A stretch of DNA of 64,000 nt from a virus (IMGVR_UViG_3300033143_005193:1-64000), one strand, 5' to 3'. Counted from the first letter of the stretch, positions 1 to 34,822 are shown. Program-made: numbers and translations. The notes: generated by a model from the letters alone, not told the origin.

Positions 1-173
1 ATTTTCAAAACATCATCTTCTATTCCATGTTTTTTAACTATATCAAGAAATTCATTCCAAGATTTCTTGAATGTGTCCTTAGCTCTTTTAAATGGATACC
101 TAGATATCTTTTTTAACGCATCAACGAACATACTTTTATTAAATGATTCATTTAAATATAACTCAAATTTCAT
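1..173 (-). CDS. Partial gene (runs off window start) with capsid-targeting-like N-terminus
   Basis: Manual translation from ATG at 173: MKFELYLNESFNKSMFVDALKK..., open to position 1; not in ORF track. Confidence 0.65.
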   Translation of the reverse strand, partial: MKFELYLNESFNKSMFVDALKKISRYPFKRAKDTFKKSWNEFLDIVKKHGIEDDVLK

Positions 174-236
174 ATCATAATTCCCCTACAATATTTATTT
201 ACATACTACTTTTATTTATTATTTATCACATTTTTT

Positions 237-244
237 TATAAATA
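237..244 (+). promoter_or_regulatory. T4-type late promoter TATAAATA (second copy 273-280)
   Basis: Exact gp55 consensus upstream of the 285-5529 gene run; gp55 is encoded in the window. Confidence 0.6.
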
Positions 245-284
245 ATATTAACATAAAAATAATTTAAGGAAATATAAATAATTT

Positions 285-884
285 ATGAGATTAAAAAATT
301 ATTTATCAGAAAAAAGAACAAATAATGTAATTGTTGTTGATATTCAACCCATGTATAAAAATTTTATATACATGAAAATGGATATGTTTAAATTTGTTGA
401 TTTTCTACAAAAACAAAGAAAAATATTATATTTTTACAATGGACCGGATACAGTTGGATCTGACAGAAAACAAGATATTATAGAATGGTTAATGGAATGT
501 TCTGATTATTCAGAACATCTTTACAACAAATTAACAAAAGAAACAATATGGTATGATAAAGGATATGGCTTCTTTAGATCTTGGATGGATATGGGTGCAG
601 ATAACGGATTCATAAAAAAAGCAATAAGATTTATGATAAACAAAAAAGTTTATGATTCAAGAGACATAGAACCAGAAGAATGGAAAGAAAAATTTCCCAA
701 TGATTGGATTGATAAATTTCAAGATGATATGATATACCTACCAGACATACCAATAAATAAACTTAAACAATTTTCTGGAAGCTATTTGGTCGGTGGTGGA
801 AAAAATGAATGTTTGAAAGAAATTAAAATATTAATGTCAGTTTTTAATATTAAATGCACTGAAGTTAAAGAATTTATATATTAA
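285..884 (+). CDS. Isochorismatase/cysteine-hydrolase-like protein, putative virion internal protein
   Basis: VIVVDIQ (hhhhDxQ) start and LVGGGKNEC near the end; N-terminus MRLKNYLSE. Confidence 0.45.
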   Translation: MRLKNYLSEKRTNNVIVVDIQPMYKNFIYMKMDMFKFVDFLQKQRKILYFYNGPDTVGSDRKQDIIEWLMECSDYSEHLYNKLTKETIWYDKGYGFFRSWMDMGADNGFIKKAIRFMINKKVYDSRDIEPEEWKEKFPNDWIDKFQDDMIYLPDIPINKLKQFSGSYLVGGGKNECLKEIKILMSVFNIKCTEVKEFIY

Positions 885-888
885 GAGA

Positions 889-1632
889 TTGATTTTGAAC
901 AAGAAAAACACAGAAAAATATAAATTTTGTCCATGTTGTAAAATGTTTCTATTAAGAAGTGAATTCAAATATTACAAAAGCAGATATGATAAATGTTCAC
1001 CTTATTGTATTAAATGTATTAAACAAAAACATATAAAAAAAGAATCAATAATACCGGATGGATATAAAAAATGTTCAGATTGTAAAAATATTTTACCAAT
1101 TACTGAATTCAACAAAAATAGATCAAACAAGGATTCATTGCAAAAAATTTGTAGAAAATGTCAAAATAACAGAGAAAAGATATATAAAAAAACCGAAAAT
1201 GGTAAAAAGAGAAATAAAAAATATGCTAATTCAGAAAAAGGAAAAATAACAAGAAAAAAATCATTAAAAAAATATAGAAAAACTGAAAAATACAGAAAAA
1301 ATTCATTATATAGAAATATCAGTAATATAATCAGATATTCATTAAAAGAAAGTAAAAAAGATGGTTCTTGGACAAACTTTGTTGATTTCACACTAGATGA
1401 ATTAAAAGAACATATTGAATCACAATTTAAAAACGGAATGTCTTGGAAAAATTATGGAACAAAATGGCATATTGATCATATAAGACCAATTGCTTCATTT
1501 AATATAACAGATTGTAAATGTGAAGATTTTAAAAAATGCTGGTCTTTAGATAATTTACAACCATTATTGGCCAAAGAGAACATTTCAAAAGGATGTAAAT
1601 GGCAGGGAAAAGATTGGAGGTATAATGAGTAG
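889..1632 (+). CDS. HNH endonuclease with N-terminal CxxC zinc-binding repeats
   Basis: WHIDHIRP...NLQPLLAKENISK; several CxxC pairs; Lys-rich linker. Confidence 0.85.
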   Translation: MILNKKNTEKYKFCPCCKMFLLRSEFKYYKSRYDKCSPYCIKCIKQKHIKKESIIPDGYKKCSDCKNILPITEFNKNRSNKDSLQKICRKCQNNREKIYKKTENGKKRNKKYANSEKGKITRKKSLKKYRKTEKYRKNSLYRNISNIIRYSLKESKKDGSWTNFVDFTLDELKEHIESQFKNGMSWKNYGTKWHIDHIRPIASFNITDCKCEDFKKCWSLDNLQPLLAKENISKGCKWQGKDWRYNE

Positions 1633-2359
1633 GTATAAAAACTTCTTAAATGAATTGAGTTCCATTTATGGTAAAGGAATAACGTTCATTGACATTGATG
1701 AAACCATATTTAAAACATTTGCAAAAATCTATGTTCTTGATAAAGAAACAAAAGAAATAAAACAAAAGCTAACAAATCAAGAATTTAATACATATAAATT
1801 AAAGGATAATGAAGAATTTGATTTCTGCGAATTCAAAGACGCTAAAACATTTAATGAAACATCCATACCTATTGAAAAAACCATAAAAAGAATAAAAAGA
1901 ATGTTCAAAAATATTGATAAAAGAGGATCAAAAGTTGTATTATTAACAGCAAGAGCGGATTTTAATGATAAAGAAACTTTTTTAGAAACATTTAGGAAAC
2001 ACGGCATACCTATTGACTCAATATATGTTGAAAGAGTAGGTAATTTTAAATCAAATCCTGCAATATATAAAAATATAATAAGAGCACATGGTATGCCAAA
2101 ATCAATTGCTGATGCTAAAGAAAAAGTTATAATTAATTATATAAATACTGGTGAATATCGTCGTGTTAGATTGATAGATGATGATATAAAAAATATTAAA
2201 ACATTTTTGAAAATAAAAGATAAATTATCAGATTCTATTATTCAAAAAATTAAAACGTTACATAAAATATCAGAAAGAGAAAGCATAGAACCTATAGAAT
2301 TTTATGGGTTATTGGTTCAAGAAAATGGAAAACTAAAGCAAATAAAAGGAAAAGAGTAA
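1625..2359 (+). CDS. HAD-superfamily phosphatase-like protein
   Basis: FIDIDETIF (motif I), VVLLTAR (motif II), K and LIDDDIKN (motifs III/IV); N-terminus MSRYKNFLNE. Confidence 0.75.
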   Translation: MSRYKNFLNELSSIYGKGITFIDIDETIFKTFAKIYVLDKETKEIKQKLTNQEFNTYKLKDNEEFDFCEFKDAKTFNETSIPIEKTIKRIKRMFKNIDKRGSKVVLLTARADFNDKETFLETFRKHGIPIDSIYVERVGNFKSNPAIYKNIIRAHGMPKSIADAKEKVIINYINTGEYRRVRLIDDDIKNIKTFLKIKDKLSDSIIQKIKTLHKISERESIEPIEFYGLLVQENGKLKQIKGKE

Positions 2360-2866
2360 ATGAAAAGTGATTGTAACTGTGTTATTAAAAATCCAGATAT
2401 TTTTACTAAAAACTTTTTAAACAATTTACCAATACCAATTGTTGTCATTACTATGGATAAAAAAATATATTATGTTAATGCTGCATTTGAAAATATTACA
2501 GGATATTATAAAGAAGAAGTTTTTGAAAAATTACCACCATATCCCTGGTGGCCAAAAAATGAATCTCAGAAATGTTATGGTTTATTTGATAAATGTTTTA
2601 ATGGTAGAAAAAAAATATGTAAAGAAATAAGATTTGTAACAAAAAATAAAAAAGATATATGGGTTGATATCATACCTAATATTGTTAGAGACAATGGTAA
2701 CAGTGTTTTTATTTCCATATGGTATGATGTCACCAAAGAAGTATTATCAAAGAAAAAATTAGAAGAAGAAATAAATAAAAGAATAATTCAATGGAATAAA
2801 GAAATAAAAGAAAAAGAAATTAAAATTCAAAAAAATTTTGAAAAAATAGGAAGTAATATATTATGA
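2360..2866 (+). CDS. Stand-alone PAS domain protein with C-terminal coiled coil
   Basis: IYYVNAAFENITGYYKEEV PAS core; TKNKKDIWV...WYDVT PAC end. Confidence 0.8.
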   Translation: MKSDCNCVIKNPDIFTKNFLNNLPIPIVVITMDKKIYYVNAAFENITGYYKEEVFEKLPPYPWWPKNESQKCYGLFDKCFNGRKKICKEIRFVTKNKKDIWVDIIPNIVRDNGNSVFISIWYDVTKEVLSKKKLEEEINKRIIQWNKEIKEKEIKIQKNFEKIGSNIL

Positions 2867-3414
2867 CTGATTCTATAAATATTGATCTTACAATAAAACT
2901 GTTTGATCAACTAAAAGATTCACATGAAAAAATGTCAAATCAAATAGAAAAATTATCAGATCTTTTATCAACATACATTTCATCTGAATATAAACCATCA
3001 AAACAAGAATTAAAAGATTTAATTATAAAAAATAAAAATGAATATCTTGAAAAGCTTAGAAATTTAGAAATAACAACAAAATCCATAGAAAACAATTTAA
3101 AAGAAATATCAGACATAATTGGTGTTGATGATGATACATTATTTCACCATATTGATAATATTGGTAGAATAAACGATACAAAAGAAGAAGTCACAAAGCT
3201 TGTTAATTATATAGATAATCTTAAAAAAATAGAATATAACGAAAATGATATTGAAAATTTAGGTGGATTTGTTAAAAAAATCAATGAAATATTAATATTT
3301 GTTAAATCAATAAAATCAAAAATAGCTATAATATTAGGATCTATTGGTTTATTAACATCAACATATGGTATAATAAAAGTTTTTGAATCTTTATCTAATC
3401 ATATAGGAAAATAA
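2863..3414 (+). CDS. Coiled-coil protein with C-terminal transmembrane helix
   Basis: Heptad-rich body; IAIILGSIGLLTSTYGII. Confidence 0.6.
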   Translation: MTDSINIDLTIKLFDQLKDSHEKMSNQIEKLSDLLSTYISSEYKPSKQELKDLIIKNKNEYLEKLRNLEITTKSIENNLKEISDIIGVDDDTLFHHIDNIGRINDTKEEVTKLVNYIDNLKKIEYNENDIENLGGFVKKINEILIFVKSIKSKIAIILGSIGLLTSTYGIIKVFESLSNHIGK

Positions 3415-3415
3415 A

Positions 3416-3613
3416 ATGAAATTTAATAAATTTTTAAAAGAAGCAACTACAACTTCTGATATAGCAATAAATACCGCTAAAAAATATATAAATACAAAAG
3501 ATAAAAAATGTAAAGAAGGGTATATATGGTGTCCAGAAAAGAAAAAATGTGTTAAAAAAGGATCTGGTGATGGAAACGGTATAAGAAGCTTTTTATTCGG
3601 AAGAAATAAATAG
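3416..3613 (+). CDS. Small protein, putative virion internal protein
   Basis: MKFNKFLKE N-terminus; C-x-x-G-Y-x-W-C motif. Confidence 0.55.
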   Translation: MKFNKFLKEATTTSDIAINTAKKYINTKDKKCKEGYIWCPEKKKCVKKGSGDGNGIRSFLFGRNK

Positions 3614-3615
3614 AA

Positions 3616-3846
3616 ATGTTTGAAGATATTTTAGAAGAATTATACGAAAATCTAAATAAGGAAAATATAAAATCTATTGATGATTTTATATGCCCAAACT
3701 GTAAATCAACAAATTTAGAACATTATATAGGATATTTTGCTTCAAGTAAAGAATACATTGCATTCTATAAATGTAATAATTGTAATAAAAAATGGAAAGT
3801 TTCAATTGGAGAAAATGTTGAAATAAAAAATATAAAGGAAATATAG
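3616..3846 (+). CDS. Zinc-ribbon protein
   Basis: CPNC...CNNC. Confidence 0.65.
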   Translation: MFEDILEELYENLNKENIKSIDDFICPNCKSTNLEHYIGYFASSKEYIAFYKCNNCNKKWKVSIGENVEIKNIKEI

Positions 3847-3856
3847 AGGTGAAAAA

Positions 3857-4093
3857 ATGAAAAATGAAAAAATTTACAAAGCATACGAAAGAAGTATATT
3901 AAAAGAATCTATGATAGATTCAAGTGATCCTGATGTAGCTTTGAACGCATTACATAACAAAGCAAAAGATCTATTAGATTCAATAAAATTTATTGAGAAA
4001 AAATTAAAATTAAAAGAATTAAAGAAATCAGAAAATTTAATGCATGATGTTTTACAATCTATTATTATTATTACAAATAAAAGAGGTGAATAA
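3857..4093 (+). CDS. Hypothetical protein
   Basis: GAGGTG RBS; tightly packed in operon. Confidence 0.6.
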   Translation: MKNEKIYKAYERSILKESMIDSSDPDVALNALHNKAKDLLDSIKFIEKKLKLKELKKSENLMHDVLQSIIIITNKRGE

Positions 4094-5529
4094 TGAATTT
4101 ATTAGAAAAATTGGATTTGTATGAAAAAGAAAATAATAAAATTTTATGCGAAAGTGGTATAAGAAATGTTCGTAATTGGGCTAAATATTTCAAGAAAGCA
4201 GTATGTTATTTTCATATTGATTTAGATGGTGTTACTTCAGCTTTAGGTATGAAAAACTATTTAGAACAATATGGAATAAAAACAATTAATGCAATTCCTA
4301 TTCAATATGGTCAAATGGAATTTGCTGTAAAAGTACCACCCAGAGGTGTATTAGTTTATTGTGTTGACTTTGCTCACGCAAAACCAATATTCCATATATG
4401 GACAGATCACCATGATTCTGAACATTTGGGAGCAACAAAAGATATGTCGGTTTCTTTTGTTAAATCACCAGCTAATGCAACTCATATTTCTATGATTATT
4501 TCACCAAGAGATATTTTTCCACAAAAAGACTTAAAAATAATTTCAACTGTGGATTCAGCAGATTTCGCATCTCAGGGATTAAAACCAGATGATATTATGA
4601 GAGCTGTATTTAAATTTGACCCAAATATTGATGTAGAAAAAAATCATAGAGCAATGGGACTTGTTGTTAATAAACTTCTTTTAGCTTACAAAAATAAACC
4701 AGACTTTTTAAAAGAACTTGTAATGACAGCAAAACCTTCTCTTATATCAATGTATAACGTAATTAAAAAACTAGCCAAGAAAAACGGATATGCTCCACCT
4801 GAAGAAATAAGCAGAAACCAAAAAGCTTATAATCAAGCTCAAAGAGAAAAAATAATAAAAGGCGGAACTATAAATGATATAAAAAGACTTAAAAACGGTG
4901 AGTCTATATTTATTGACGGTATTATTGTTCAATATGGTGGTGGTGATATGTCAAGAGGAAAACAATATGATAGATATACTGTTTTTAAAAACCATCCAGA
5001 TGCTCAATTTCTATGTATAGGATGGCAGCTTGGATTAATACAAGTTAGTAAAAACCCTTTTGAAAAAAGTGAACTTTCAATACATTTAGGTGAACTGGTC
5101 TTGGGTAAAGTAATGAAAAAATATAAATCAAAATTTAGAAATGAAATGATTTCTTTAAAAACACTAAAAAAAATGTATGAAAGTGATATAGGAAAAAAGA
5201 GATTAAGGGGTGCTGTTGGATTTACTTTTGATGATTTAATTAATACATTTAAATCAAATCAAATAAAAGGAATAAATATTAACAAAACAGGAACATGGAC
5301 CGATATTGTTAAAGATATAACAAACAAACGTTATAGATTCCTATCAAGAAAACAAAAAGCAATATTGGATAGAATAAAAATAAGTGTTTGGGATATTATC
5401 ATGAGCCAAAGTGGTGGACATAAATCCATCACGAATCTTACAAATCTAAATTTCCTTGGCAGTGATTACGTTGATAAAATGAAAGAAATAATGATAGATA
5501 TTGTAAAAGAGCTCCAAAAGCATGTATAA
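4093..5529 (+). CDS. DHH-family phosphoesterase
   Basis: HIDLDG, VDF, WTDHH, STVDS and C-terminal SGGHK motifs. Confidence 0.75.
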   Translation: MNLLEKLDLYEKENNKILCESGIRNVRNWAKYFKKAVCYFHIDLDGVTSALGMKNYLEQYGIKTINAIPIQYGQMEFAVKVPPRGVLVYCVDFAHAKPIFHIWTDHHDSEHLGATKDMSVSFVKSPANATHISMIISPRDIFPQKDLKIISTVDSADFASQGLKPDDIMRAVFKFDPNIDVEKNHRAMGLVVNKLLLAYKNKPDFLKELVMTAKPSLISMYNVIKKLAKKNGYAPPEEISRNQKAYNQAQREKIIKGGTINDIKRLKNGESIFIDGIIVQYGGGDMSRGKQYDRYTVFKNHPDAQFLCIGWQLGLIQVSKNPFEKSELSIHLGELVLGKVMKKYKSKFRNEMISLKTLKKMYESDIGKKRLRGAVGFTFDDLINTFKSNQIKGININKTGTWTDIVKDITNKRYRFLSRKQKAILDRIKISVWDIIMSQSGGHKSITNLTNLNFLGSDYVDKMKEIMIDIVKELQKHV

Positions 5530-5541
5530 ATAACTGGCTTA

Positions 5542-6609
5542 ATGAGTAGTTATATAAAAACCAAATCTGGTAAAAGATACAAAGATGAAAATAATATCTT
5601 TTATTATAAAATAAAATGTGAATCATGTGGTAAAATATTTTTCCATAAATTCAAACGAAAATATTGTAACAATTGTTTATCGACATTTAAGAAAGAATCA
5701 CAAAAACTATCAATTGATTATGTAAGAAAAGAATTTGAAAAAATTGGATATACCTTATTATCCGAAAATTACATTAATAACAATTCAAAATTAAAAGTAA
5801 AATGTAATAACGGACATATATATTATCCTACATATAATAATTTTAAAAAAGGTGAAAGGTGTTTATACTGTTCAAAAAATTCTCCCGTAAGTTGGGAAAA
5901 TGTTTTATATTTGTTTAATTTAAAAGGATGGAAAGTTTTAACTAAAAAAGATGAATTTGTAAATGCCAATACATATATAAAATTTTCATGTAAAAATAAT
6001 CATATTTACAGATACAAATATGTAACATTAAAATCAAGGTTTGAAACGATAGATTGTCCGTATTGTAATAAAACTATTCCAATAAAATTCGATGATATAA
6101 AAAAATCTTTTGAAAAAGAAGGATGGATAGTTCATACTAAAAAAGAAGAATATAAAACACAAAACACAACACCAATAGATTGTACTTGTCCTAACGGACA
6201 TAGACAATTTAAAAATGTAAGAAAATGGCGCGATGGTAGAAGATGCATATATTGTAATTCATCAGGTCCTGAAATATCATTAAGAAATTTCATAGAAAAA
6301 TTAAAAATAGAATGTATTTATAATGACAGAAAAATATTGAACGGAATTGAACTCGATTTCTATTTTCCAAAAATAAAAAAAGCAATAGAATTTAATGGTG
6401 AATATTGGCATTGTAGAAACACAAGATTTAGTCCATATGATATAAATAAAAATAAAGGATTGTATGCAAAAGAAATATGGATAAAAGATAGATTAAAAAA
6501 AATCAAGTGTAGAAGAAAAAAAATAGATTTAATGGTTATATGGGATAATGACTGGAAAAATTATACAAAACATTACAAAAAATTAATTAAAACTTTTCTA
6601 AATATTTAA
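5542..6609 (+). CDS. Homing-endonuclease-like protein (repeated zinc modules plus C-terminal PD-(D/E)xK/Vsr-like nuclease)
   Basis: Repeated C-x-x-G-H...CxYC units; ELDFYFP...AIEFNGEYWH; TATAAATA at 5525-5532. Confidence 0.75.
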   Translation: MSSYIKTKSGKRYKDENNIFYYKIKCESCGKIFFHKFKRKYCNNCLSTFKKESQKLSIDYVRKEFEKIGYTLLSENYINNNSKLKVKCNNGHIYYPTYNNFKKGERCLYCSKNSPVSWENVLYLFNLKGWKVLTKKDEFVNANTYIKFSCKNNHIYRYKYVTLKSRFETIDCPYCNKTIPIKFDDIKKSFEKEGWIVHTKKEEYKTQNTTPIDCTCPNGHRQFKNVRKWRDGRRCIYCNSSGPEISLRNFIEKLKIECIYNDRKILNGIELDFYFPKIKKAIEFNGEYWHCRNTRFSPYDINKNKGLYAKEIWIKDRLKKIKCRRKKIDLMVIWDNDWKNYTKHYKKLIKTFLNI

Positions 6610-6630
6610 AATTGTAAAAAAACTACAAAA

Positions 6631-6677
6631 ATACAAAGATGAAAATAATATCTTTTATTATAAAGTAAAGTGTGAAT
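6631..6677 (+). repeat. 47-bp direct repeat of 5577-5623 (2 mismatches)
   Basis: ATACAAAGATGAAAATAATATCTTTTATTATAAA(A/G)TAAA(A/G)TGTGAAT at both sites. Confidence 0.9.
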
Positions 6678-6705
6678 TATAATAAAAAGAAAGAGAAATA
6701 ATAAA

Positions 6706-7206
6706 ATGAAACTTAGAAAATATCTTAAAAATATTTATCATATAGAAATGATAGAAGAAGGTTTTTCTATTCCTATGAAAAATAAAGAAAAATATAAAAA
6801 ACTAAATCCAAAAACAAATAGAACTAAAACATATAAAAAAACAAAATATATAAAAACAGATATACCACCTGAAAAAAGAGATTTTGATAATATACCAAAA
6901 TACGCTGATGGTAGTTTCAAAGTAAGATTTCAAGATTGGCTGGAAATTGATACAAGTAAATCACCAGGAAAAAACTGGGGATGGTCAAAAAATGGAAAAT
7001 GTTATGGGTGGAGTCATAGAGCTGTATATGGTTTTAAAATTGGTGATGAAATTAAAGGTGATAGTTTAGGTAAAAAAGTAATATATCCAAAACTTCAAGA
7101 TGGTTCTTTTGATTTTGACAATGGAAAATTTGAACCAGATTTTGTTATTAAAACAAACAAACAAGCAGAAGAAGTCGCCAAAACATTTGCTGAAAATGTT
7201 GCATAA
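6706..7206 (+). CDS. Hypothetical protein, putative internal protein
   Basis: MKLRKYLK...MIEE N-terminus; GWSHRA motif. Confidence 0.6.
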   Translation: MKLRKYLKNIYHIEMIEEGFSIPMKNKEKYKKLNPKTNRTKTYKKTKYIKTDIPPEKRDFDNIPKYADGSFKVRFQDWLEIDTSKSPGKNWGWSKNGKCYGWSHRAVYGFKIGDEIKGDSLGKKVIYPKLQDGSFDFDNGKFEPDFVIKTNKQAEEVAKTFAENVA

Positions 7207-7220
7207 TAAAGAGGAATAAA

Positions 7221-7526
7221 ATGAAACTTAAAAAACATTTAATGAACGAGGCTCCTATCCAAACAAAGGGATGGACAAAACAATCCTTAGAAAAATTTGG
7301 TAAAACAATAGGTAAAATGCCTGATGAAAAAGGTTTTTTTGAAGTATGTGTAAATGAAATGAAAAACAAAGATGGTTTTAATGAAGAAAAAGCTAAAGGA
7401 TTTTGTGCCGCTATAAAAGATCGTCACTATAACAGCCCAATGTGGCGAGGAGCTAATAAAACAAAAAAAGAAATTGAACAGGATATAAAGAAAAAAAAAT
7501 TTAAAAAATCTTTACCAGAAAAATAA
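7221..7526 (+). CDS. Hypothetical protein, putative internal protein
   Basis: MKLKKHLMNE N-terminus; GAGGA RBS. Confidence 0.6.
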   Translation: MKLKKHLMNEAPIQTKGWTKQSLEKFGKTIGKMPDEKGFFEVCVNEMKNKDGFNEEKAKGFCAAIKDRHYNSPMWRGANKTKKEIEQDIKKKKFKKSLPEK

Positions 7527-7589
7527 TTATAAATAAAAAATATAAATAATACCAAGATGTAAAAATAAAAATTTGGAGGTGAAATCAGT

Positions 7590-7826
7590 ATGCAACTTTT
7601 TCTAGCAATCGTTAATCTTATCCCAAGCATTATTAAAATTATCACAGCTATCGAAGAAACATTTCCTCAATCCGGCATTGGTGAACAAAAACTTCAATTA
7701 GTTAAAGACATTTTAACCGAAGCTTACACTAATGTAAATGAAATATGGGGAAGTATTGAAAAAATTATTTCTGTTATAGTGTCTTTTGCTAATAAAATTG
7801 GTGCCTTCACTAAGTCATCAGATTAA
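7590..7826 (+). CDS. Small late protein, holin-like (LL-H type)
   Basis: Hydrophobic N-terminus then IEETF...GEQKLQLV; TATAAATA at 7528 and 7541; GGAGGTG RBS. Confidence 0.4.
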   Translation: MQLFLAIVNLIPSIIKIITAIEETFPQSGIGEQKLQLVKDILTEAYTNVNEIWGSIEKIISVIVSFANKIGAFTKSSD

Positions 7827-7905: not shown

Positions 7906-8772
7906 TTACTTAAAAAATGGATTACCAACTAATATATTATCTCTTAACAAATGAGTCTTACCCATTGGTTCCAAAAGAAATTCTATCTTTTTTATAAAGA
8001 ATTTATCTATCATCTTATTATAATCAATATCCACAACTTCATTAAATTCCTTTGGCCATCTATAAAATGTAATTGTTTCTATATTATATGGATTATCCTT
8101 TATATATAAAACCTTAGCTTTCATTGATTCATGAATATCTTCATAAAGATTTTCTATACCTAATTCTTTTAAAAGATAATTATAATTTGCAACACCTTTA
8201 ACGTGCCAAGGTGTTGATTTTATTGGTCTTCCATCTACTATATATTTTGAAAGATTGTTTATTCCAATATTAGCGGCTATTTCTTCTGGTGAAACTTTTT
8301 TTAATTCTTTCTTATATTGATTTATTTTCTTCACTAATTCCTTTTCATCAACATTTTTAAGAATCATATTCATTATAATTTTAAGTTTTTCTCTTATAGC
8401 TTCAGCACTATCAGATCTAACAATTTCAAGCCCTGTTACTGAAATCTTATCTACCGGTACACCTTCTTCATCAATACAATGATAAGCATATTTCTTTTTC
8501 TTAATAAAAAGAGCAGATTTTGCAATAATTTCTTGCTTTAGTTTTATCTTAAAATCTTCCACAACGGAATTATAATCAAGTTTTTGTGTTTCATTGAAAA
8601 TTCTATCATTTACATATTTTTCTATTTCTTTTGAAATTTTTCTAATATATTCAATCTTTTTTTCATCAGATAAACATATCCATTTATCTTTATTAGATAT
8701 ATTATCTAGTATAAATTTCTCAACACCAATATAACAACTATCAGTATCTCCATACAAAACATAATCATTCAT
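7906..8772 (-). CDS. Family B DNA polymerase, C-terminal subunit (gp43B-like)
   Basis: YGDTDS motif C, KKKYA, TGLEIVRSD; own GAGGA RBS. Confidence 0.92.
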   Translation of the reverse strand: MNDYVLYGDTDSCYIGVEKFILDNISNKDKWICLSDEKKIEYIRKISKEIEKYVNDRIFNETQKLDYNSVVEDFKIKLKQEIIAKSALFIKKKKYAYHCIDEEGVPVDKISVTGLEIVRSDSAEAIREKLKIIMNMILKNVDEKELVKKINQYKKELKKVSPEEIAANIGINNLSKYIVDGRPIKSTPWHVKGVANYNYLLKELGIENLYEDIHESMKAKVLYIKDNPYNIETITFYRWPKEFNEVVDIDYNKMIDKFFIKKIEFLLEPMGKTHLLRDNILVGNPFFK

Positions 8773-8820: not shown

Positions 8821-10575
8821 TTAATCTATTTCATTTATAATATTTTTTATACTTTCTACTTTATCTATATTATTCAACATTTCATTGATAAAATTTTCAG
8901 TTTGTCGTATTGTTCTACGGCCACAACTTGTAATGGCTTCAGCAATATTTGTATTAAAATATCTTGAGTATGGAACAGAAGTAATACCAAATACAGCATT
9001 AAGAACGATCTTAATACTCCATTGTTTTGCAAATAATTGAGCAACTCTTTTATCTTTTGAATTTTTTCTTTTTATTTCCTTCATTTTATTTTTAGTTTCA
9101 ACTCTTTTATTAAAATATTCTCTCAAGACTCTAACTATAATACCTTCTTTTGTGTTGTTAAAAACCGAACCACAAGGAGCAATGGAAACCATTTTCTTTT
9201 CTACCATAAGATTGAATTTTTTTAACATTTTATTTTTAAATTCAATCCTATCACCGTTTATTTTATACATATTAAATGGAGGAAAATTATTATTCCGTGT
9301 ATAATATATAACCATATCTTCCGTTATACCAACAATTCTACCAACATAAGTTTCTGTTGACATATTAAGACAAATCATGTGTGAAGGATATGAGCTTGTT
9401 AAATCAACTGAAGAAACCCATTTATACATTCCCTTTTGTGGTTCTTTAACATAAGCAGCTTCAAAACCTTTTTGAGTACCACCTTCAAAAAACGGAGCAC
9501 ATAAATTATTTCTTCTATAATGTGTTAAAAGAGCACCTTCTATCAATTGTGTCATAGCATTATAATACTTCATCGGGCATTTTGTTAAAAGTGAAAGAGA
9601 TTGAACCAAATTTATATAACCTAATTTATTTTCTAACTGATTTACTCTTTCACAGTCAATAATGTTATATTCAACATATTTGTCATAATTTCCATTATAT
9701 AATTCATTAAGATTTTTATATTCAGAATAATCTAATTTACCTTCTTCAAGCTCTGTTTTAGAAACAAAATCAAGAGTATAACTTTCAAGTTTCTTTGGTG
9801 AATACCATCTATACAAATCATAATAATCAAGAATAGTTATACCAGCAATATCAATATTCATTGAATTATCTAATTTTGATCTCCATGTTCTAACAATATT
9901 AATTGGTGAAAGTTTATTATATTCATTTTCACCAACTATTTTAATCGAACGATTTATAATATATGGTAAGTCAAATAAAAAAATATTATAACCTGATATA
10001 ACATCAACACTACACTTATGAAAAAATGAAAGAAATTTCTTTATTAAAGAATACTCATCTTTACAATAAATGAACTTAACATTTTTCATTCTACCAGTAT
10101 ACGGTTTAGAACCAAATGTATAAGTTTTTCCTGTAGATCCATTTCTAATGGAAATAAGAGAAATTGGATCATTGGCGTCTTCTGGTTTTGGGAAACCATC
10201 ATAAGCTGCAACTTCAATATCTAAATAATAAATAGATAAATCAGGAACTTCTAAATCATCATCAGGAATAGTATGATATCTTTCAGATAAAAATTGAATT
10301 TCAGGTTTTACTTTATTTTCAAATATATCATATCTATCTTTAACAAAATCATAATAATCATTATAAGTATCAAAATCTCTTTTTACAACAGAAACACCAT
10401 TAAGTGTTTTGATATTACCTTTTTTACTCTTTAGAAAAACATAAGGCGTCCAGGGAATTTCAGTATAAAGGTTTTTACCATTCACTTGTTCCCATAAATG
10501 AATTTTACTCTTTTTTGTGTTATAAAAACAATTTTTAAAAATTTTTATCACCTCTCTTTCCATTATTATCTTCAT
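8821..10575 (-). CDS. Family B DNA polymerase, N-terminal subunit (gp43A-like: exonuclease, motifs A and B)
   Basis: DIEV ExoI, GYNIFLFD ExoII, YNIID ExoIII, DLTSSYPS motif A, KIVLNAVFG motif B. Confidence 0.92.
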   Translation of the reverse strand: MKIIMEREVIKIFKNCFYNTKKSKIHLWEQVNGKNLYTEIPWTPYVFLKSKKGNIKTLNGVSVVKRDFDTYNDYYDFVKDRYDIFENKVKPEIQFLSERYHTIPDDDLEVPDLSIYYLDIEVAAYDGFPKPEDANDPISLISIRNGSTGKTYTFGSKPYTGRMKNVKFIYCKDEYSLIKKFLSFFHKCSVDVISGYNIFLFDLPYIINRSIKIVGENEYNKLSPINIVRTWRSKLDNSMNIDIAGITILDYYDLYRWYSPKKLESYTLDFVSKTELEEGKLDYSEYKNLNELYNGNYDKYVEYNIIDCERVNQLENKLGYINLVQSLSLLTKCPMKYYNAMTQLIEGALLTHYRRNNLCAPFFEGGTQKGFEAAYVKEPQKGMYKWVSSVDLTSSYPSHMICLNMSTETYVGRIVGITEDMVIYYTRNNNFPPFNMYKINGDRIEFKNKMLKKFNLMVEKKMVSIAPCGSVFNNTKEGIIVRVLREYFNKRVETKNKMKEIKRKNSKDKRVAQLFAKQWSIKIVLNAVFGITSVPYSRYFNTNIAEAITSCGRRTIRQTENFINEMLNNIDKVESIKNIINEID

Positions 10576-10614: not shown

Positions 10615-10622
10615 TATAAATA
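10615..10622 (+). promoter_or_regulatory. Late promoter TATAAATA
   Basis: Exact consensus 35 bp upstream of 10657. Confidence 0.6.
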
Positions 10623-10656: not shown

Positions 10657-11463
10657 ATGGGTAAATTTATTAGATATTTAGATGAATCAATAGTTATAGA
10701 AAAAAAGATTGGTTATATGATAACAAAAAATTGTCAACCATTTCTTAAAGAAATAAAACAACATAATATCAAAAAATTCATTTATAGAGGAACTTACAAA
10801 AGGATTAATGATATAAAAAAAATAATACCAAGAAAAAATAGAAAACCAAAAGATATGTCACCAGATTTACAGAAATTATTTGATGAATTTTTCTATGAAA
10901 AATTTAGATGGAGACCGAGAAGCGAAGGAGTATTTACTATAGGAGATATAAAATCAATAAGAGGCATTTACGGGACACCATATATTTTTGTCCCAATTGG
11001 AGAATATGAATATTTATGGAGCCCTGATGTGGATGATCTTTATGAAGAAACCGATTGTGAAGACTATAGTGATGAATTTGATGATTTTGGTTTGGAAGAT
11101 GACTGGGAAAATAGATATGGTGAAGAAGAAAATGGAACATGGGAATATGACGGCGAACCATTAAATATACGTAATAAACATGAAGCTATAGAATATATAG
11201 AAAATGAAATTGATGAAAATTTTAATCCATCAAAACTTAAATGGATACCTGAAATGTCATATGAAGAATTTTATAATGAAACTAAAGAAGAATTTGAAGA
11301 AAAAAAAGAATATTTAATTAAAAATATTGTAGATAGTTACTTAGATACAGAATTATTAAGAAAAGCAATAAACAAAAAACATGAAATAATGTTTAAATGT
11401 GATTCCTATTATTTAATAAACGGGGAATACGAAGATTATTTAAAAACGTTTATGTTTGGATAA
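10657..11463 (+). CDS. ADP-ribosyltransferase-like paralogue 1 (acidic insert)
   Basis: IYRG...EGVFT...YG.PYIF...HEIMF; MGKFIRYLDE N-terminus. Confidence 0.5.
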   Translation: MGKFIRYLDESIVIEKKIGYMITKNCQPFLKEIKQHNIKKFIYRGTYKRINDIKKIIPRKNRKPKDMSPDLQKLFDEFFYEKFRWRPRSEGVFTIGDIKSIRGIYGTPYIFVPIGEYEYLWSPDVDDLYEETDCEDYSDEFDDFGLEDDWENRYGEEENGTWEYDGEPLNIRNKHEAIEYIENEIDENFNPSKLKWIPEMSYEEFYNETKEEFEEKKEYLIKNIVDSYLDTELLRKAINKKHEIMFKCDSYYLINGEYEDYLKTFMFG

Positions 11464-11469: not shown

Positions 11470-12327
11470 ATGACAAAACTATACGAATATTTAAAAAAAG
11501 ATGAAAGTATCTTTCTTAATAAATTAAGTAAAGATATTCAGAAAAATTGTCAACCATTTATCAAAGAATTTAAATCATCTAATGTAAAATATTTTTTATA
11601 TAGAGCAACTAAAAAAAACATAAAATTCTATGATAAAATAATTCCAAGAAAAGATAGAAAACCAAGAGACACACCACTTCATATTCATAAATTAATTGAT
11701 GATATATTTAAGGATAAATTTGGATGGAAACCAAGAAGTGAAGGTGTATTTGTTAATCCTAATAAAACCGTAATATCAGAATATGGTAATGCTTATATTT
11801 TCATTCCAATAGGAAAATATGAATACTTATGGTCACCTAAAATAGATGATTTATATAATGAAATTAAATTAACAATAAGACTTAAATGCAATCTTCCAAT
11901 AAAAGAAATAACATTTGAAAAATTTAAAAACATTGATAAATTCAAAATAGAATATGAAAAATATAAAGAACCCGAATCTCTTGGTGGTTCCTGGTGGTAT
12001 AAAAACATAGACACAGGATATACTAAAAAATATAATGCAATAGATTATTTAAAAAAATTCAAAAATATTAAAGAAGATGAAATGGAAATATATATGTCAG
12101 ATGATTTTAGATGGATTCCAAAAATGACATTTGAAAAATTCATAGAAAAAAAATACAGAGAACTAATGAAAACAATTGAAAAAATTATAAAAGAAAAAGC
12201 AGAAACATATAAAACAAATAATTTAAAAGAACTGGTTTTAACTATTAATGAAGCAATGTTCAAATGTAATTCCTATTATCTTATAAATCCTAATTTTTTT
12301 GAAAAATTAAAAAATAATTTATTTTAA
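11470..12327 (+). CDS. ADP-ribosyltransferase-like paralogue 2
   Basis: LYRA...EGVFV...YG.AYIF...NEAMF; clear paralogue of 10657. Confidence 0.5.
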   Translation: MTKLYEYLKKDESIFLNKLSKDIQKNCQPFIKEFKSSNVKYFLYRATKKNIKFYDKIIPRKDRKPRDTPLHIHKLIDDIFKDKFGWKPRSEGVFVNPNKTVISEYGNAYIFIPIGKYEYLWSPKIDDLYNEIKLTIRLKCNLPIKEITFEKFKNIDKFKIEYEKYKEPESLGGSWWYKNIDTGYTKKYNAIDYLKKFKNIKEDEMEIYMSDDFRWIPKMTFEKFIEKKYRELMKTIEKIIKEKAETYKTNNLKELVLTINEAMFKCNSYYLINPNFFEKLKNNLF

Positions 12328-12876: not shown

Positions 12877-13224
12877 CTATTTCTCCATATTATTATAAAG
12901 ATTTACCATACAATCCATACAACCTTCACAAGCCTTTTTATAGTTCTTTTCATTAAAACAAAATGATGAATCATCTACATCCCATGAAATATTCAAACAA
13001 TGATTAAAATTATTCATTTCAACGTCATAACCATAAACATGACTCAAAACATCAGCAATTCTCTTTCCATATAAATCATAAATTTCTCTATTTTTAAATT
13101 TATAAACAGTAGAAAATGAACCATTTTCTGACTTTATAAGATTATCAATTTCTTTAAAAATATCTTCAATAACATCTTCTTTATACTCCATTGATCTTTT
13201 AAATGCTTCTTTTGCTGTCAACAT
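12877..13224 (-). CDS. Hypothetical early protein
   Basis: AGGAG RBS and consensus promoter upstream. Confidence 0.65.
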   Translation of the reverse strand: MLTAKEAFKRSMEYKEDVIEDIFKEIDNLIKSENGSFSTVYKFKNREIYDLYGKRIADVLSHVYGYDVEMNNFNHCLNISWDVDDSSFCFNEKNYKKACEGCMDCMVNLYNNMEK

Positions 13225-14419: not shown

Positions 14420-14431
14420 CTTTATTCACCT

Positions 14432-19961: not shown

Positions 19962-19973
19962 CTTTATTCACCT

Positions 19974-21077: not shown

Positions 21078-21079
21078 CT

Positions 21080-21880
21080 TTATTCATGCTTTTTCAACAA
21101 AAAAGAACAAAAATCACCAGCATATATTTCGACCCAATTTGATTCATTTCCTACTCGTGTTAGTGTTGATCTATTTTCTTTATCATCTAATCCCAACTGA
21201 CCATGATTATTATGACCACAGGCATACAACCCACCACGATCATTAATAGCTAACGAATGATTATAACCACAAGATATTTCTTTCCAATTTGATTCATTTC
21301 TAACTTGTGTTGGTTCTAATCTATTTAAAATATCACCTAAGCCTAATTGACCTTTATCATTATCACCCCAAGCATACAATTCACCACGATCATTAATAGC
21401 CAATAAATGATATTCACCACAAGCTATTTTTCTCCAATTTGAATCATTCCCTATTCGTGTTGGTTCTAATCTATTTAAAATATCACCTAAGCCTAATTGA
21501 CCATAATAATTATCACCCCAAGAATATAATTCACCACGATCATTAATAGCCAATGAATGATATCTTCCACAAAACACATCAACCCAATTTGAATCATTTC
21601 CTATTCTTATTAGTATTAATCTATTTACTGTATCACCAAGACCCAATTGACCATAACCATTATAACCACAAGAATATAATTCACCACGATCATTTATTGC
21701 TAATGAATTACTACTATTACAAGCTATTTTAATTACATTATTAACGCTACCGAGTAATGTTAATTGAGATCCAAAAAACAAATCCTGAGAATTTAATTTA
21801 TACCCACAAGCATACAAATCATAAATGGTTTCATTATTAGATCTATCCAAAATTTCATTTGTTTTATAACACAATAACAT
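21080..21880 (-). CDS. RCC1-repeat protein, copy 1 (266 aa, two blades fewer)
   Basis: Start reassigned to MLLCYKTNE (ATG 21880) by homology with paralogues; a promoter lies inside the longer ORF call. Confidence 0.9.
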   Translation of the reverse strand: MLLCYKTNEILDRSNNETIYDLYACGYKLNSQDLFFGSQLTLLGSVNNVIKIACNSSNSLAINDRGELYSCGYNGYGQLGLGDTVNRLILIRIGNDSNWVDVFCGRYHSLAINDRGELYSWGDNYYGQLGLGDILNRLEPTRIGNDSNWRKIACGEYHLLAINDRGELYAWGDNDKGQLGLGDILNRLEPTQVRNESNWKEISCGYNHSLAINDRGGLYACGHNNHGQLGLDDKENRSTLTRVGNESNWVEIYAGDFCSFLLKKHE

Positions 21881-21914
21881 TTTTTCAAAATACCCTTCGA
21901 TATATTTTTTCAAT

Positions 21915-21943
21915 ATTATACTATAAAACATGAAAAAAGTAAA
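21915..21943 (-). promoter_or_regulatory. Sigma70-type early promoter of the RCC1 operon
   Basis: TTTACT-17-TATAAT. Confidence 0.7.
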
Positions 21944-21993
21944 TTTTTTCATCAAAAAATGATAAATATACAAAAAATAGGAGGAATATATAA

Positions 21994-31118: not shown

Positions 31119-31121
31119 CTC

Positions 31122-31924: not shown

Positions 31925-32659
31925 TTAAAGTAAACGTGGATCATAAATATCTGGATCTATTAGATAGAATCCATCTTTTTGGCAATTAAAGATTACTTCT
32001 TCGTTTGTGACTAAGTTAAGATTTTTATCAGTGTATTTATTTTTCATAATAGCGTAAGTTATTCCGTCAAGAATTTTCTTTGTTAATTCTTTCTTTTTAC
32101 GTTCTATTTTTGTATTTGAGACATTTTCATCATCTATCATATCATACAAGCTTTTAATTTCTTTAAAAAGCTTTTCATCATTTAAACGATTTAATTGTAA
32201 GAATTTTTTAAACTTTTCAAATTTATACATTGATTCAACGTTTATATACTTCCAGGTGTCATGTACATATAAGATAACGTTTTCTAAATCATTAGTTAAT
32301 TCAATAGAATCACTCATACCTGGAGCGTATATATACTTCCATGATGAACCTATTGGAAGGAAAATATATGGTAATCCATATGATTTTGCTTCTGAATATA
32401 TTGGTGATGTAAATGTTCCTTGGGAACGACATGGCCAACCGAAGATCTTTTTAGAAGCTTTATCTAGAGATTTAGATCCTATTGGGTTTGAATTAAGTGG
32501 TTCGCGGTCTTTTCTTGGCATAAATTTATTTATAGTAAATAGTTTCTTATATCCACGATATAAAGTAAGCCTAGGGTATTTGTTTAGGAAATAGGAACAA
32601 TCGTTTTTTATTGCTTGAAGTTGTTTATCTTCATTTATAAAATTTTTTAGCCCTGTCAT
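31925..32659 (-). CDS. ADP-ribosyltransferase-like paralogue 6
   Basis: Start reassigned to MTGLKNFINE (AGGAG RBS); LYRG...GTFTSPIYSEAKSYG...NEEVIF. Confidence 0.55.
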   Translation of the reverse strand: MTGLKNFINEDKQLQAIKNDCSYFLNKYPRLTLYRGYKKLFTINKFMPRKDREPLNSNPIGSKSLDKASKKIFGWPCRSQGTFTSPIYSEAKSYGLPYIFLPIGSSWKYIYAPGMSDSIELTNDLENVILYVHDTWKYINVESMYKFEKFKKFLQLNRLNDEKLFKEIKSLYDMIDDENVSNTKIERKKKELTKKILDGITYAIMKNKYTDKNLNLVTNEEVIFNCQKDGFYLIDPDIYDPRLL

Positions 32660-32661
32660 TG

Positions 32662-33366
32662 TTACTCCTTGATGAATTCTTGGAAGACTTCGATATTTAT
32701 TAGATAATAGCCTTCTTTTTGGCAATTAAAGATTACTTCTTCGTTTGTGATTTTGTTGAAATTTTTATCTATATATAATTCTTTCATAATTATTAGAGCC
32801 GATACATAAAGAATTTCTTTTATTTGATCTTTTCTTATATGTTCCGTTTTTTTATTTAAGATATTATTATTAATAATAATATCATCAAAAACAGTTTTAT
32901 AATGGATAAAACGTCCTAAAAATTCTCTTAATTCTTTAATAATATCTGAATATCTTTTTTTATCATTTTCATATACAACTATATCATATAAATCTTCTGT
33001 AAATTTTATTGAATCTTGTGTAATGGGTGTGTATATATACTTCCATGAAGATCCTATAGGAAGGAAGATATATGGTAATCCATACATGCTTGCTTCTGAA
33101 TATACTGGTGATGTAAATGTACCTTGGGATCTACATGGCCAACCAAAAACTTCTTTTGAGGCCCTATCGAAAGCTTTTGATACTATCATACTTGTATGTA
33201 GTGGTTCACGGTCTTTTCTTGGCATGAATTTTTTTATATATATATCTTTTTTCTTACGATATCCACGATATAGAGTAATATTTGGATATTTAGTTAGGAA
33301 ATGATGACAATCATCTTTTACTTTTTGTATTTCATTTTCTTTTATAAAGTTTTCTAATCTTGTCAT
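32662..33366 (-). CDS. ADP-ribosyltransferase-like paralogue 5
   Basis: LYRG...GTFTSPVYSEASMYG...NEEVIF. Confidence 0.55.
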   Translation of the reverse strand: MTRLENFIKENEIQKVKDDCHHFLTKYPNITLYRGYRKKKDIYIKKFMPRKDREPLHTSMIVSKAFDRASKEVFGWPCRSQGTFTSPVYSEASMYGLPYIFLPIGSSWKYIYTPITQDSIKFTEDLYDIVVYENDKKRYSDIIKELREFLGRFIHYKTVFDDIIINNNILNKKTEHIRKDQIKEILYVSALIIMKELYIDKNFNKITNEEVIFNCQKEGYYLINIEVFQEFIKE

Positions 33367-33380
33367 TTTTTAAAACCTCT

Positions 33381-34109
33381 TTAAATTAGAAAATAAGGAT
33401 TTTCTATCCATTTTTGGTAAATATCTGGATTTATTAGATAATAACCTTCTTTTTGACAATTGAATATAACTTCTTCTATAGTGACTAAGTTAAGATTTTT
33501 ATCAGTGTATTTATTTTTCAATACTCTATAAGATAGAATATCTAAAATTTTTAAAGAAACTTTGTTTTTTAGATCTGTGAGATTTTTATCAGTGGAGAAT
33601 TTCATATTATATTTGAATGATGCCATCATGTTATTGATATCTTTATCATGGATATTATGATCTGATAAAATATTTTTATAAACAGCATAAATTTCACTAT
33701 ATCTTGCATTTGAATTAATATATTTAGCAATTATATTCATATCGTATGTTAAGTTTATGGAATCTCTTATATCTGGCGCGTATATATACTTCCAGGAAGA
33801 TCCTATAGGAAGGAAGACATATGGATCACCATATTCTTTGGCTTGTCGTATGATTTTGGTTACAAATGTTCCTTGGGATCTACAGGGCCAACCGAAGATC
33901 TTTTTGGAATCTCTATCTAGAATTTTTGATACTATTGGGTTCATATCAACAGGTTTTCTGTCTTTACGAGGCATTACTTTTAAAACACTAATATGTTTTT
34001 TAACACCTCTGTAGAAAATATTTCTTGGGAATTTTTCTAAATAAAAAGAACAGTCTCTTTTAACCGATATCATATCATTTACTAAGTATTCTTTTAATTT
34101 CATAGTCAC
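33381..34109 (-). CDS. ADP-ribosyltransferase-like paralogue 4
   Basis: FYRG...GTFVTKIIRQAKEYG...IEEVIF. Confidence 0.55.
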   Translation of the reverse strand: MTMKLKEYLVNDMISVKRDCSFYLEKFPRNIFYRGVKKHISVLKVMPRKDRKPVDMNPIVSKILDRDSKKIFGWPCRSQGTFVTKIIRQAKEYGDPYVFLPIGSSWKYIYAPDIRDSINLTYDMNIIAKYINSNARYSEIYAVYKNILSDHNIHDKDINNMMASFKYNMKFSTDKNLTDLKNKVSLKILDILSYRVLKNKYTDKNLNLVTIEEVIFNCQKEGYYLINPDIYQKWIENPYFLI

Positions 34110-34114
34110 ACCTT

Positions 34115-34822
34115 TTAAAGATAAATATCAGGATCTATTAGATAATAGCCTTCTTTTTGACAATTGAATATAACTTCTTCATTTTTAGTTTTATCTAAGT
34201 TTTTGTTTGTGTATTTATTTTTTATAAGTACAATAGCATATTCTTCTGCGATTCTTTTTGTTAATTGTTTTTTTATTGATTCTATTTTTGAAGGGTTTTC
34301 ATTTTTTAAAACCATATCATACCAATTGTCCAAATCTTTATTGAGATTTTTATCATATATTAATTTTTTTTCTGATAGAGATGATTTAAGAATATTAAAA
34401 ACATAATTATAATCTTTTGATTGAGTAGGAATAGCAAATAAATAACCTAAATTATTTATTGTTTCCACAGAATCATCTAATCCCGGAGAATAAATATACT
34501 TCCAGGAAGATCCTATAGGAAGAAAAAAGTATGGCTTACCATAGAATCTTGCATATTCTATATTTTTAGTTACGAATGTTCCTTGGGAACGACATGGCCA
34601 ACCGAAGATCTTTTTGGAGGCTTTGTCTAGAGCTTTAGATCCTATTGGGTCTGAATCAAGTGGTACACGGTCTTTTCTTGGCATGAATTTTTCTATAGTA
34701 AATAGTTTCTTATATCCACGATATAGAATAAGGTTAGGGTATTTATTTAGGAAATAGGAACAGTCTTTTTTCACTGTTCCGAAGCTGATATTGTTTTCTG
34801 TTAAATAATTTTTGAATTTCAT
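34115..34822 (-). CDS. ADP-ribosyltransferase-like paralogue 3
   Basis: MKFKNYLTE; LYRG...GTFVTKNIEYARFYG...NEEVIF. Confidence 0.55.
   Translation of the reverse strand: MKFKNYLTENNISFGTVKKDCSYFLNKYPNLILYRGYKKLFTIEKFMPRKDRVPLDSDPIGSKALDKASKKIFGWPCRSQGTFVTKNIEYARFYGKPYFFLPIGSSWKYIYSPGLDDSVETINNLGYLFAIPTQSKDYNYVFNILKSSLSEKKLIYDKNLNKDLDNWYDMVLKNENPSKIESIKKQLTKRIAEEYAIVLIKNKYTNKNLDKTKNEEVIFNCQKEGYYLIDPDIYL

Follow-up and report, generated by a model that had tools for sequence, protein, structure and literature searches.

At least 14 genes on an uncultivated viral contig, in about nine families and including one open reading frame (ORF) cut by the window edge, begin with the same short peptide, which is 9 or 10 residues long and has the form M-(K/R)-hydrophobic-x-x-aromatic-(L/I)-x-E. 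We interpret this peptide, with a probability of about 0.65, as a T4-type capsid-targeting and propeptide signal that marks proteins to be packaged in the virion and injected into the host. The DNA studied, called the window here, is a stretch of 64,000 nucleotides (IMGVR_UViG_3300033143_005193:1-64000) at the start of a linear viral contig of 110,776 bp from IMG/VR, which CheckV placed at 46% completeness and which has a G+C content (GC) of about 25%. The contig encodes a T4-type DNA polymerase, ~32% identical to the polymerases of T4-like cyanophages, and gp5/gp27/gp6-like baseplate proteins. The source is an uncultivated, T4-related phage, probably a jumbo phage, with a genome of, probably, around 240 kb.

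Occurrence and enrichment of the peptide

The peptide was first noticed in an earlier reading of the window made without database searches (the sequence-only reading), and the observation is real: every exact N-terminus quoted in that reading is found at the position quoted for it (Table 1). Two of its looser forms, MKLRKYLKN at 6706 and MTKLYEYLKKDE at 11470, were likewise located, whereas the third, MKLKEYLVND, starts at 34103 (minus strand) and not at 34109; the GTG at 34109 is a poorer start than the ATG at 34103, which has AAAGGTG ahead of it. The carriers had been described as unrelated, which is true of about nine families, but all-against-all BLAST showed that 10657, 11470, 31925, 32662, 33381 and 34115 are members of one paralogous family, called family A below. 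The motif had also been said to be missing from the replication, baseplate, RCC1 and sugar-pathway genes, and indeed none of those ORFs on the contig has it.

Enrichment at gene N-termini, a kind of check that the sequence-only reading had proposed, was strong at residues 6-7. A total of 158 ORFs were called over the full contig, and [FYH][LI]x(1-2)E was scored where it started at residue 6 or 7; there were 11 matching ORFs against 0.84 expected from the internal pattern rate of 0.0026 per position (Poisson p 1.6e-9). When the six paralogues were counted once, eight families remained and p was 2.8e-6. The positional profile of the pattern has a sharp peak at residues 6-7, and of 500 internal Met residues used as a control, two were followed by the pattern. 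The edge ORF adds one carrier beyond the 11, and two clear carriers lie on the same contig outside the window (76234-77349 and 86345-87025). Another match outside the window, MSLRDYITKEE on a sigma-region-4/helix-turn-helix (HTH) protein (80560-80880, minus), is probably due to chance. The codons and residues 2-5 differ among the copies of the peptide, so selection has acted at the protein level; a DNA-level repeat or cassette was rejected on these grounds.

Agreement with the T4 capsid-targeting sequence

The sequence-only reading had described the signal of T4 internal proteins (IPs) as being of the MKTYQEFIAE type, correctly so, as MKTYQEFIAE is the capsid-targeting sequence (CTS) of T4 IPIII. 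Work by Mullaney and Black in 1996 reportedly dealt with the T4 internal proteins and their CTS. By suppressor mutagenesis, residues 4 and 7 of the T4 CTS were assigned to targeting and residues 8 and 10 to processing, and Asp at residue 10 blocked cleavage while targeting was kept (PMC9026906). The 10-residue forms MSRYKNFLNE, MGKFIRYLDE, MTRLENFIKE and MTGLKNFINE, with a hydrophobic residue at position 4, an aromatic residue at 7, L/I at 8 and E at 10, match the T4 CTS exactly. In the 9-residue forms MKFKNYLTE, MKFNKFLKE, MRLKNYLSE, MKFKEFITE and MKFEEYINE the spacing is that of the CTS, one residue nearer the Met. Two carriers depart from the CTS: 33381 has Asp at the Glu position and 6706 lacks the Glu there. 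The small basic proteins 3416 and 7221 read Glu-Ala across the predicted cleavage site, as T4 IPs do.

As a positive control, T4 was searched with the identical ORF caller and regular expression (265 ORFs, matches at residues 5-8). The control recovered ipII and ipIII, which are annotated internal virion proteins, and inh, a minor head protein; it also returned gp61.1, alt.-3 and one evident false positive, gp43. The pattern picks up true head-internal proteins plus a few extras. T4 has 5 matches in 265 ORFs and this half-genome 11 in 158. The CTS-like N-termini of the two T4 hypothetical proteins (NC_000866) are MKTFKEFIKE for gp61.1 (18966-19130) and MKSSLRFLGQE for alt.-3 (122742-123032).

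Conservation of the peptide and turnover of the cargo

For the 285 hydrolase there were 132 homologues, with the motif present in 95 of the 120 listed, and its E9 does not vary in 20 homologues with identities as low as 38%. The motif-bearing homologues come from genomes of 31-44% GC. Family A homologues (31-53% identity) start MSKFNEYLKE, MIFRNYLKE, MKTYKKFILE or MKSNEFIIE, so the motif is retained even at 31-33% identity; it is followed by a variable linker and then by a conserved CQPFLKE block. Many of the 620 homologues of the HAD phosphatase encoded at 1625 start MKTFQEYLNE, MQTFKEYLLE or MKSFKQFLTE, with a linker of 6-12 residues ahead of DxDxT, and the motif is also retained in the phrog_1462 family. 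An AlphaFold2 model of the 285 protein, made with a 20-sequence alignment, had a mean predicted local distance difference test (pLDDT) score of 89.8, with residues 1-9 below 50 and the rest above 80-90; the family A model had a mean of 86.7, with residues 1-10 at 55. Strong conservation of a segment that appears to have no structural role, on unrelated folds, has the look of a portable signal and is supportive of one.

The presence or absence of the peptide within the phrog_1462 family was considered as further evidence and rejected as a gene-calling artefact. The upstream DNA of the seemingly peptide-less entries encodes the peptide in frame, as (GTG)LRFKRFLLE-KA-M... or MLRFKTYLEE-KA-M..., behind a skipped GTG or an earlier ATG. 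Similar-looking peptide-less HAD forms were not used as an argument. In phrog_1462 relatives (L117-L126) a Met is conserved 2-3 residues past the predicted cleavage Glu (...FLLE-KA-M..., ...YLEE-KA-M..., ...LLE-RD-M...); this Met is the start chosen by gene callers, and databases therefore hold truncated forms of the family. Translation could also truly begin at this internal Met and yield an isoform free of the tag.

In a close relative, L004, whose polymerase is 86% identical to that of this phage, the orthologue of the edge ORF (18394-18930) reads MKFESYLNE from an internal ATG, and the orthologues of 1625, 3416 and 7221 start MSRYKNFINE, MKFNKYIEE and MKLKDYLLNE (the last 83% identical). 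The orthologue of 4093 aligns from residue 53 on only. The 285 gene is absent from L004, a different tagged ORF of 168 residues (MTKLQDYIEE) is present in another slot, and four family A copies adjoin the polymerase gene. The tag is thus kept on orthologues while the cargo is swapped, an arrangement resembling that of T-even IP loci, which vary between relatives (PMC3012670). The cargo proteins share the peptide only, as judged by all-against-all BLAST and their distinct folds, and their loci differ from those of L004. The tagged block also contains endonuclease genes, one EndoVII/HNH-like (889-1632, plus) and one encoding a 355-residue HNH homing-endonuclease-like protein (5542-6609, plus). 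L004 has neither (there is no counterpart of 943-1632) and has a GIY-YIG-like ORF beside its HAD gene; turnover of the cargo at the tagged locus may be the work of mobile endonucleases.

Association with T4-type heads

Eight phage records of at least 90% completeness have a homologue of the 285 hydrolase, and seven of these encode an S77 prohead protease. A gp23-type capsid protein was found in four of the five records tested, namely all four of the tested S77-positive ones. The remaining record, G004 (an IMG/VR record of 224 kb, 90% complete; L030, L135-L146), had no S77 and no gp23-type match, and its hydrolase homologue starts MIKKYSALSKGK, free of the motif. Genome-wide enrichment at residues 6-7 was compared in six genomes or contigs, five of T4 type and one other. 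Observed against expected counts were 12 and 2.0 in G013 (p 1.6e-6), 10 and 1.9 in G001, 5 and 1.2 in G005 and 5 and 1.1 in T4, all four significant; in G004 the enrichment was not significant (3 against 1.6, p 0.23). Confirmation of its head type would make G004 a useful natural negative control. In G001 and G013 the motif ORFs lie inside or adjoin the portal-protease-capsid module, and the capsid propeptides contain L-x-E sites, for example RFLNE/V and VLGE/A. S77 is present as well in Atu_ph07, whose family A homologue (MKWHQLTE...) is the only one from a cultured phage. In tblastn searches of cultured phages for the cargo families, the 285 protein and the SAM-lyase-like (S-adenosylmethionine-lyase-like) protein had no matches, the HAD protein matched only an uncultured phage, and family A matched Atu_ph07 alone among cultured phages.

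The proteins that carry the peptide

In the 285 protein, D19, K92 and C176 are invariant in 20 homologues, forming a D-K-C triad, and the top Foldseek matches are N-carbamoylsarcosine amidase, cysteine hydrolase and nicotinamidases (probability 0.98-0.99, E about 0.01, template-modelling score about 0.42). No Pfam or PHROG match was found for this protein, and lacking a Pfam match it is a distant member of the isochorismatase-like family at best. The 1625 protein matched phrog_415 at 4.5e-6, and Pfam Acid_phosphat_B (PF03767) at 19.6 bits, below the cut-off of 27. In family A (13 sequences) R44 (YRG), R62 and E243 (E-I/V-M/I-F) are invariant and S89 (RSEG) is present in at least 90%. VIA-align matched family A with 2aua at Z 5.7 and with Arr, exotoxin A, cholix, DarT, PARP10/15, CopC and OspC3 at Z 2.9-4.2; Foldseek returned nothing at E<=0.001. 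To call these proteins ADP-ribosyltransferase-like (ART-like) appears reasonable, if weakly supported.

The hydrolase and the HAD phosphatase proposed in the sequence-only reading have thus been borne out, the structural matches of the six paralogues are consistently to ART folds but weak (Z 3-5.7), and for the possible DHH phosphoesterase, 4093, the profile match, confined to the N-terminal domain, is below the gathering score (26.4 bits, cut-off 28.1). The ILKE and ILCE of 3857 and 4093 are possible longer propeptides, on weak evidence. That reading had missed the Tad6 (Thoeris inhibitor) domain of 6706. The SAM-lyase-like and phrog_1462 proteins are two additional carriers beyond the window. 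The 6706 protein scored 50.3 bits (cut-off 27) with Pfam PF25188, Tad6, residues 92-165 aligning with profile positions 70-144 of 145; a PDB sequence search and the ESM Atlas gave nothing for it. The match of 86345-87025 to the S-AdoMet lyase profile PF23780 (31.2 bits against a cut-off of 28, residues 45-165) is marginal, and the protein had no sequence match in the phage database or PDB. For the 371-residue phrog_1462 protein the Atlas returned only viral hypotheticals; the HpaII/HaeIII restriction-enzyme families scored 0.86 there, which is a lead only. A kit acting on nicotinamide adenine dinucleotide (NAD) and nucleotides, as the cargo had been labelled, is a plausible description rather than a finding.

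Table 1. Genes with the N-terminal peptide, and promoter-like elements; positions are those of the contig, and features lie in the window except where indicated
Feature	Position	Strand	Remarks
5' part of edge-cut ORF	3-173	-	N-terminus MKFELYLNE
Isochorismatase-like cysteine hydrolase, 199 residues	285-884	+	Peptide MRLKNYLSE at 285-311
HAD-family phosphatase, 244 residues	1625-2359	+	MSRYKNFLNE, linker, DIDET (residues 23-27)
Small basic protein, 65 residues, mature pI 9.8	3416-3613	+	MKFNKFLKE then ATTT
Two ORFs with ILKE/ILCE at residues 14-20	3857-4093, 4093-5529	+	Second weakly DHH-like
Tad6-like protein, 166 residues	6706-7206	+	Loose motif MKLRKYLKN...IEMIEE
Small basic protein, 101 residues, mature pI 9.7	7221-7526	+	MKLKKHLMNE then APIQ
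Two ART-fold paralogues (weak fold match)	10657-11463, 11470-12327	+	MGKFIRYLDE and MTKLYEYLKKDE; phrog_11975 3.5e-28
Four tandem ART-fold paralogues (weak fold match), 31925-34822	34115-34822, 33381-34103, 32662-33366, 31925-32659	-	MKFKNYLTE, MKLKEYLVND, MTRLENFIKE and MTGLKNFINE
phrog_1462 protein, 371 residues, outside window	76234-77349	-	MKFKEFITE
SAM-lyase-like protein, 226 residues, outside window	86345-87025	-	MKFEEYINE
Two TATAAATA boxes	237-244, 273-280	+	Ahead of co-directional block 285-7826
TATAAATA	10615-10622	+	35 nucleotides upstream of 10657, in divergent region common to DNA polymerase gene
Sigma70-type promoter sites	Window 12877-13224 (-), 8821-10575 (-), 35311 (+), 47912 (+); contig 90632, 99392

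Interpretation

If the peptide is a T4-type CTS, it would dock its carrier protein onto the prohead scaffolding core late in infection, and a gp21-type (S77) prohead protease would cut after the Glu; the 285 protein, cut in this way, would begin KRTNNVIVVDIQP... The mature protein would remain in the head with the DNA and be ejected into the next host cell, where the delivered proteins would be ready-made, first-minute counter-defence or host-takeover factors. The six ART-fold paralogues would be functional analogues of T4 Alt. By analogy, some of the cargo fits a first-response role, namely the Tad6-like protein, the SAM-lyase-like protein and the ART fold, which resembles that of packaged T4 Alt. 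The sequence-only reading had the virion packaging and injecting a kit of enzymes. The part of this that has held is that the peptide behaves as a portable T4-type CTS, as judged from the match to the CTS determinants, the T4 control, conservation, the place of the peptide outside the confident fold of the models and the association with T4-type heads; targeting, cleavage, packaging, injection and the action of the cargo are inferred. We suggest more tentatively, at somewhat less than even odds, that an uncultivated lineage of large phages in the T4 superfamily pre-loads its heads through the CTS with ten or more enzymes and defence inhibitors, among them several ARTs, a phosphatase, a SAM lyase, a Thoeris inhibitor and a hydrolase that is amidase-like and NAD-related.

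Several findings weigh against the CTS interpretation. Profile searches of the 46%-complete contig with PF03420 (S77 prohead protease) and PF07068 (gp23-type capsid) found neither, and no portal or scaffold gene was found there either; the head module is therefore placed on the missing half. Closer relatives searched for head genes were seven polymerase relatives, all on contigs of at most 36 kb, and S77 was not found in five contigs of 47-59 kb that carry the hydrolase. No cultured relative or virion proteome was found for this phage, and since there is a single negative genome, G004, the co-variation of the motif with T4-type heads is suggestive, not conclusive. Low pLDDT is common at termini, which makes the AlphaFold2 profiles weak evidence, supportive at most, and as the phrog_1462 difference is an artefact, modularity within a single family is not demonstrated. 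Some matches are probably due to chance (80560) or loose (6706, 11470, 33381). The timing of expression gives no help: TATAAATA, behind which several of the genes were said to lie, is present in the window in 33 copies against 31.1 +/- 4.8 in shuffles, which is the chance level, and the baseplate genes are not behind it, so late timing of the motif genes is not established. Furthermore, a sigma70-like promoter, TTTACA-N17-TACAAT, lies upstream of the ORF at 34859-35128, which precedes the four-gene ART cluster.

These points raise the question of whether the peptide might be a short linear motif with some other role, such as docking to a common partner from phage or host (a chaperone, the membrane or a replication factory), a degron or a site of regulatory cleavage, with the proteins acting only where they are made. 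An N-terminal segment that is conserved and probably unstructured would suit such a motif, as would the lack of a head link on this contig and the early-type promoter ahead of one cluster, and SAM lyase and Tad6-like proteins are known from other phages as ordinary expressed proteins. We nevertheless hold this explanation to be unlikely, because the conserved positions are the mutationally defined determinants of the T4 CTS, because the pattern selects head-internal proteins in T4, and because the enrichment follows gp21/gp23-type heads and is absent in the one genome without them. Bias in codon usage at the 5' ends of AT-rich genes (MK..., rich in Lys/Asn/Phe/Ile/Leu/Glu), combined with paralogy, would require no functional signal at all. 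The low GC of the contig, a 2.4-fold enrichment of K at residue 2 and the paralogy of six of the instances are in its favour, but the enrichment persists when the paralogues are collapsed, the pattern is rare after internal Met residues, and the motif, with its invariant Glu, is conserved in homologues from 31-44% GC genomes. Given the internal-Met control, these homologues and the enrichment across other genomes, codon bias is a very unlikely explanation, and to us the least credible.

It is also conceivable that the carriers are indeed targeted to the prohead, but that some of them, chiefly 3416 and 7221, are scaffold or core components or are degraded in maturation, only part of the cohort being injected. 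A precedent exists in T4, where gp67, gp68, gp22 and inh also go into the prohead and undergo cleavage at L/I-x-E (PMC9026906). The 3416 and 7221 proteins are small, basic and without enzymatic features, and the position of motif ORFs within the head modules of G001 and G013 would be in keeping with such a role. Most carriers, however, have full-size enzyme folds with conserved catalytic residues, features that do not sit easily with a role that is only structural or sacrificial, and the small basic IPs of T4 are themselves injected. We regard this possibility as improbable, more so than another linear-motif role though less so than codon bias.

Relation to known systems

If the CTS interpretation is right, the closest parallel is with T4 IPI, IPII and IPIII, which have a 9-10-residue N-terminal peptide with the same spacing of hydrophobic/aromatic, aromatic, I/L and Glu residues on cargo that is otherwise unrelated. 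As with the T4 IPs, cargo is swapped between close relatives and a first-response role in counter-defence is proposed. The present case differs in that the lineage is very distant, as the polymerase identity, the GC and the probable genome size indicate; in that half a genome, with 158 ORFs, has 11-12 tagged proteins, whereas the whole of T4 has 3-5; and in that the predicted cargo is mostly full-size enzymes, not small basic proteins. Variable cargo sharing only a CTS is established for T-even phages, so that this would be a known mechanism in a new setting; its novelty lies in the lineage, in the scale and in cargo that is enzymatic.

T4 Alt is a packaged and injected ADP-ribosyltransferase processed by gp21. 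The six paralogues resemble it in having a candidate ART-type fold, conserved Arg/Ser/Glu and a candidate head-targeting propeptide. Unlike Alt, they are present in six copies with a hypervariable insert and an IP-type tag, they have no detected sequence similarity to Alt, ModA or ModB, and the best of their weak fold matches is the uncharacterised protein BC2332 (2aua).

The ejection (E) proteins of phiKZ, 201phi2-1 and SPN3US offer another likeness, since these are large phages with S77-related proteases that cut after Glu and with many packaged proteins, including enzymes (PMC5694885). Their cleavage motif is A/S/G-x-E and their propeptides are mostly longer than 100 residues (PMC5694885), unlike the T4-type aromatic-L/I-x-E that is found here inside a peptide of 9-10 residues. 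The Pfam matches above threshold relate 6706 to Tad6, a type I Thoeris inhibitor, and 86345-87025 to the T3-type SAM lyase. Tad6 binds ThsB and blocks the ThsB active site (PMC13728456). The match of 6706 is only to the C-terminal half of the Tad6 profile, and from their sequences both proteins appear to differ from the known ones in an extra, tag-bearing N-terminal segment (the tag being loose in 6706).

Were the CTS interpretation correct, dozens of proteins with recognisable enzymatic folds would become candidates for injection in this phage and its relatives. Against defences that strike as the DNA enters, a phage has only its injected proteins, since these act ahead of any phage gene expression. 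In T4 a handful of injected proteins is known, of which IPI and IPIII are already anti-defence factors. The 9-10-residue tag could then be a general search key for injected counter-defence genes in metagenomes, in uncultivated T4-type and jumbo phages, and the range of cargo deliverable through T4-type heads would be wider.

Promoters and other features of the contig

The claim that tagged genes lie behind TATAAATA was only partly sustained, the box being found within 45 nucleotides upstream of 285, 10657 and 80560 and of no other motif gene. Ten of the 33 window copies are on the sense strand within the first 11 kb, where about 2.8 would be expected. The pair of boxes at 237-280 is a possible T4-type late promoter, but with its count at chance in the window and a local sense-strand excess in the first 11 kb only, TATAAATA was rejected as a late-promoter link. 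Clear sigma70-type promoters (TTTACA/TTGACA-N17-TATAAT) are present in several intergenic regions, including one ahead of the baseplate block (Table 1), and for this reason TATAAATA may not be the main late promoter. The sigma-70 region-4/HTH protein of 80560-80880 has 106 residues, is encoded 38 nucleotides behind TATAAATA and just upstream of an ORF of 1791 residues, and may be a phage transcription factor.

The polymerase gene is split into two ORFs, 8821-10575 and 7906-8772 (both minus), with a 48-nucleotide gap between them. The second begins just ahead of the YGDTDS motif and has its own GAGGA ribosome-binding site; in L004 the gene is a single ORF of 850 residues. Eight tandem RCC1-repeat ORFs (13319-21952, minus) each lie behind an identical ATGAATAAAGGTGAATAA leader. 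Five are of 356-366 residues with 55-78% mutual identity, one has 363 residues, one is truncated to 149, and the eighth, of 290 residues, has an N-terminus different from those of the other copies.

A second N-terminal pattern, MF(E/D)DIL..., recurs at 3616-3846 and 58621-58761 (minus) in the window and at 100435-100680 (minus) on the contig. In relatives it takes the form M(D/T)I(I/L/V)(D/N/K)(K/R)I(D/E)(R/K)xL(x)xE, as in MDIIKKIDRYLNE, and is found at 19731-20468 of L004 and on several ORFs in L008, L009 and L010. It may represent a longer class of propeptide with the same L-x-E end.

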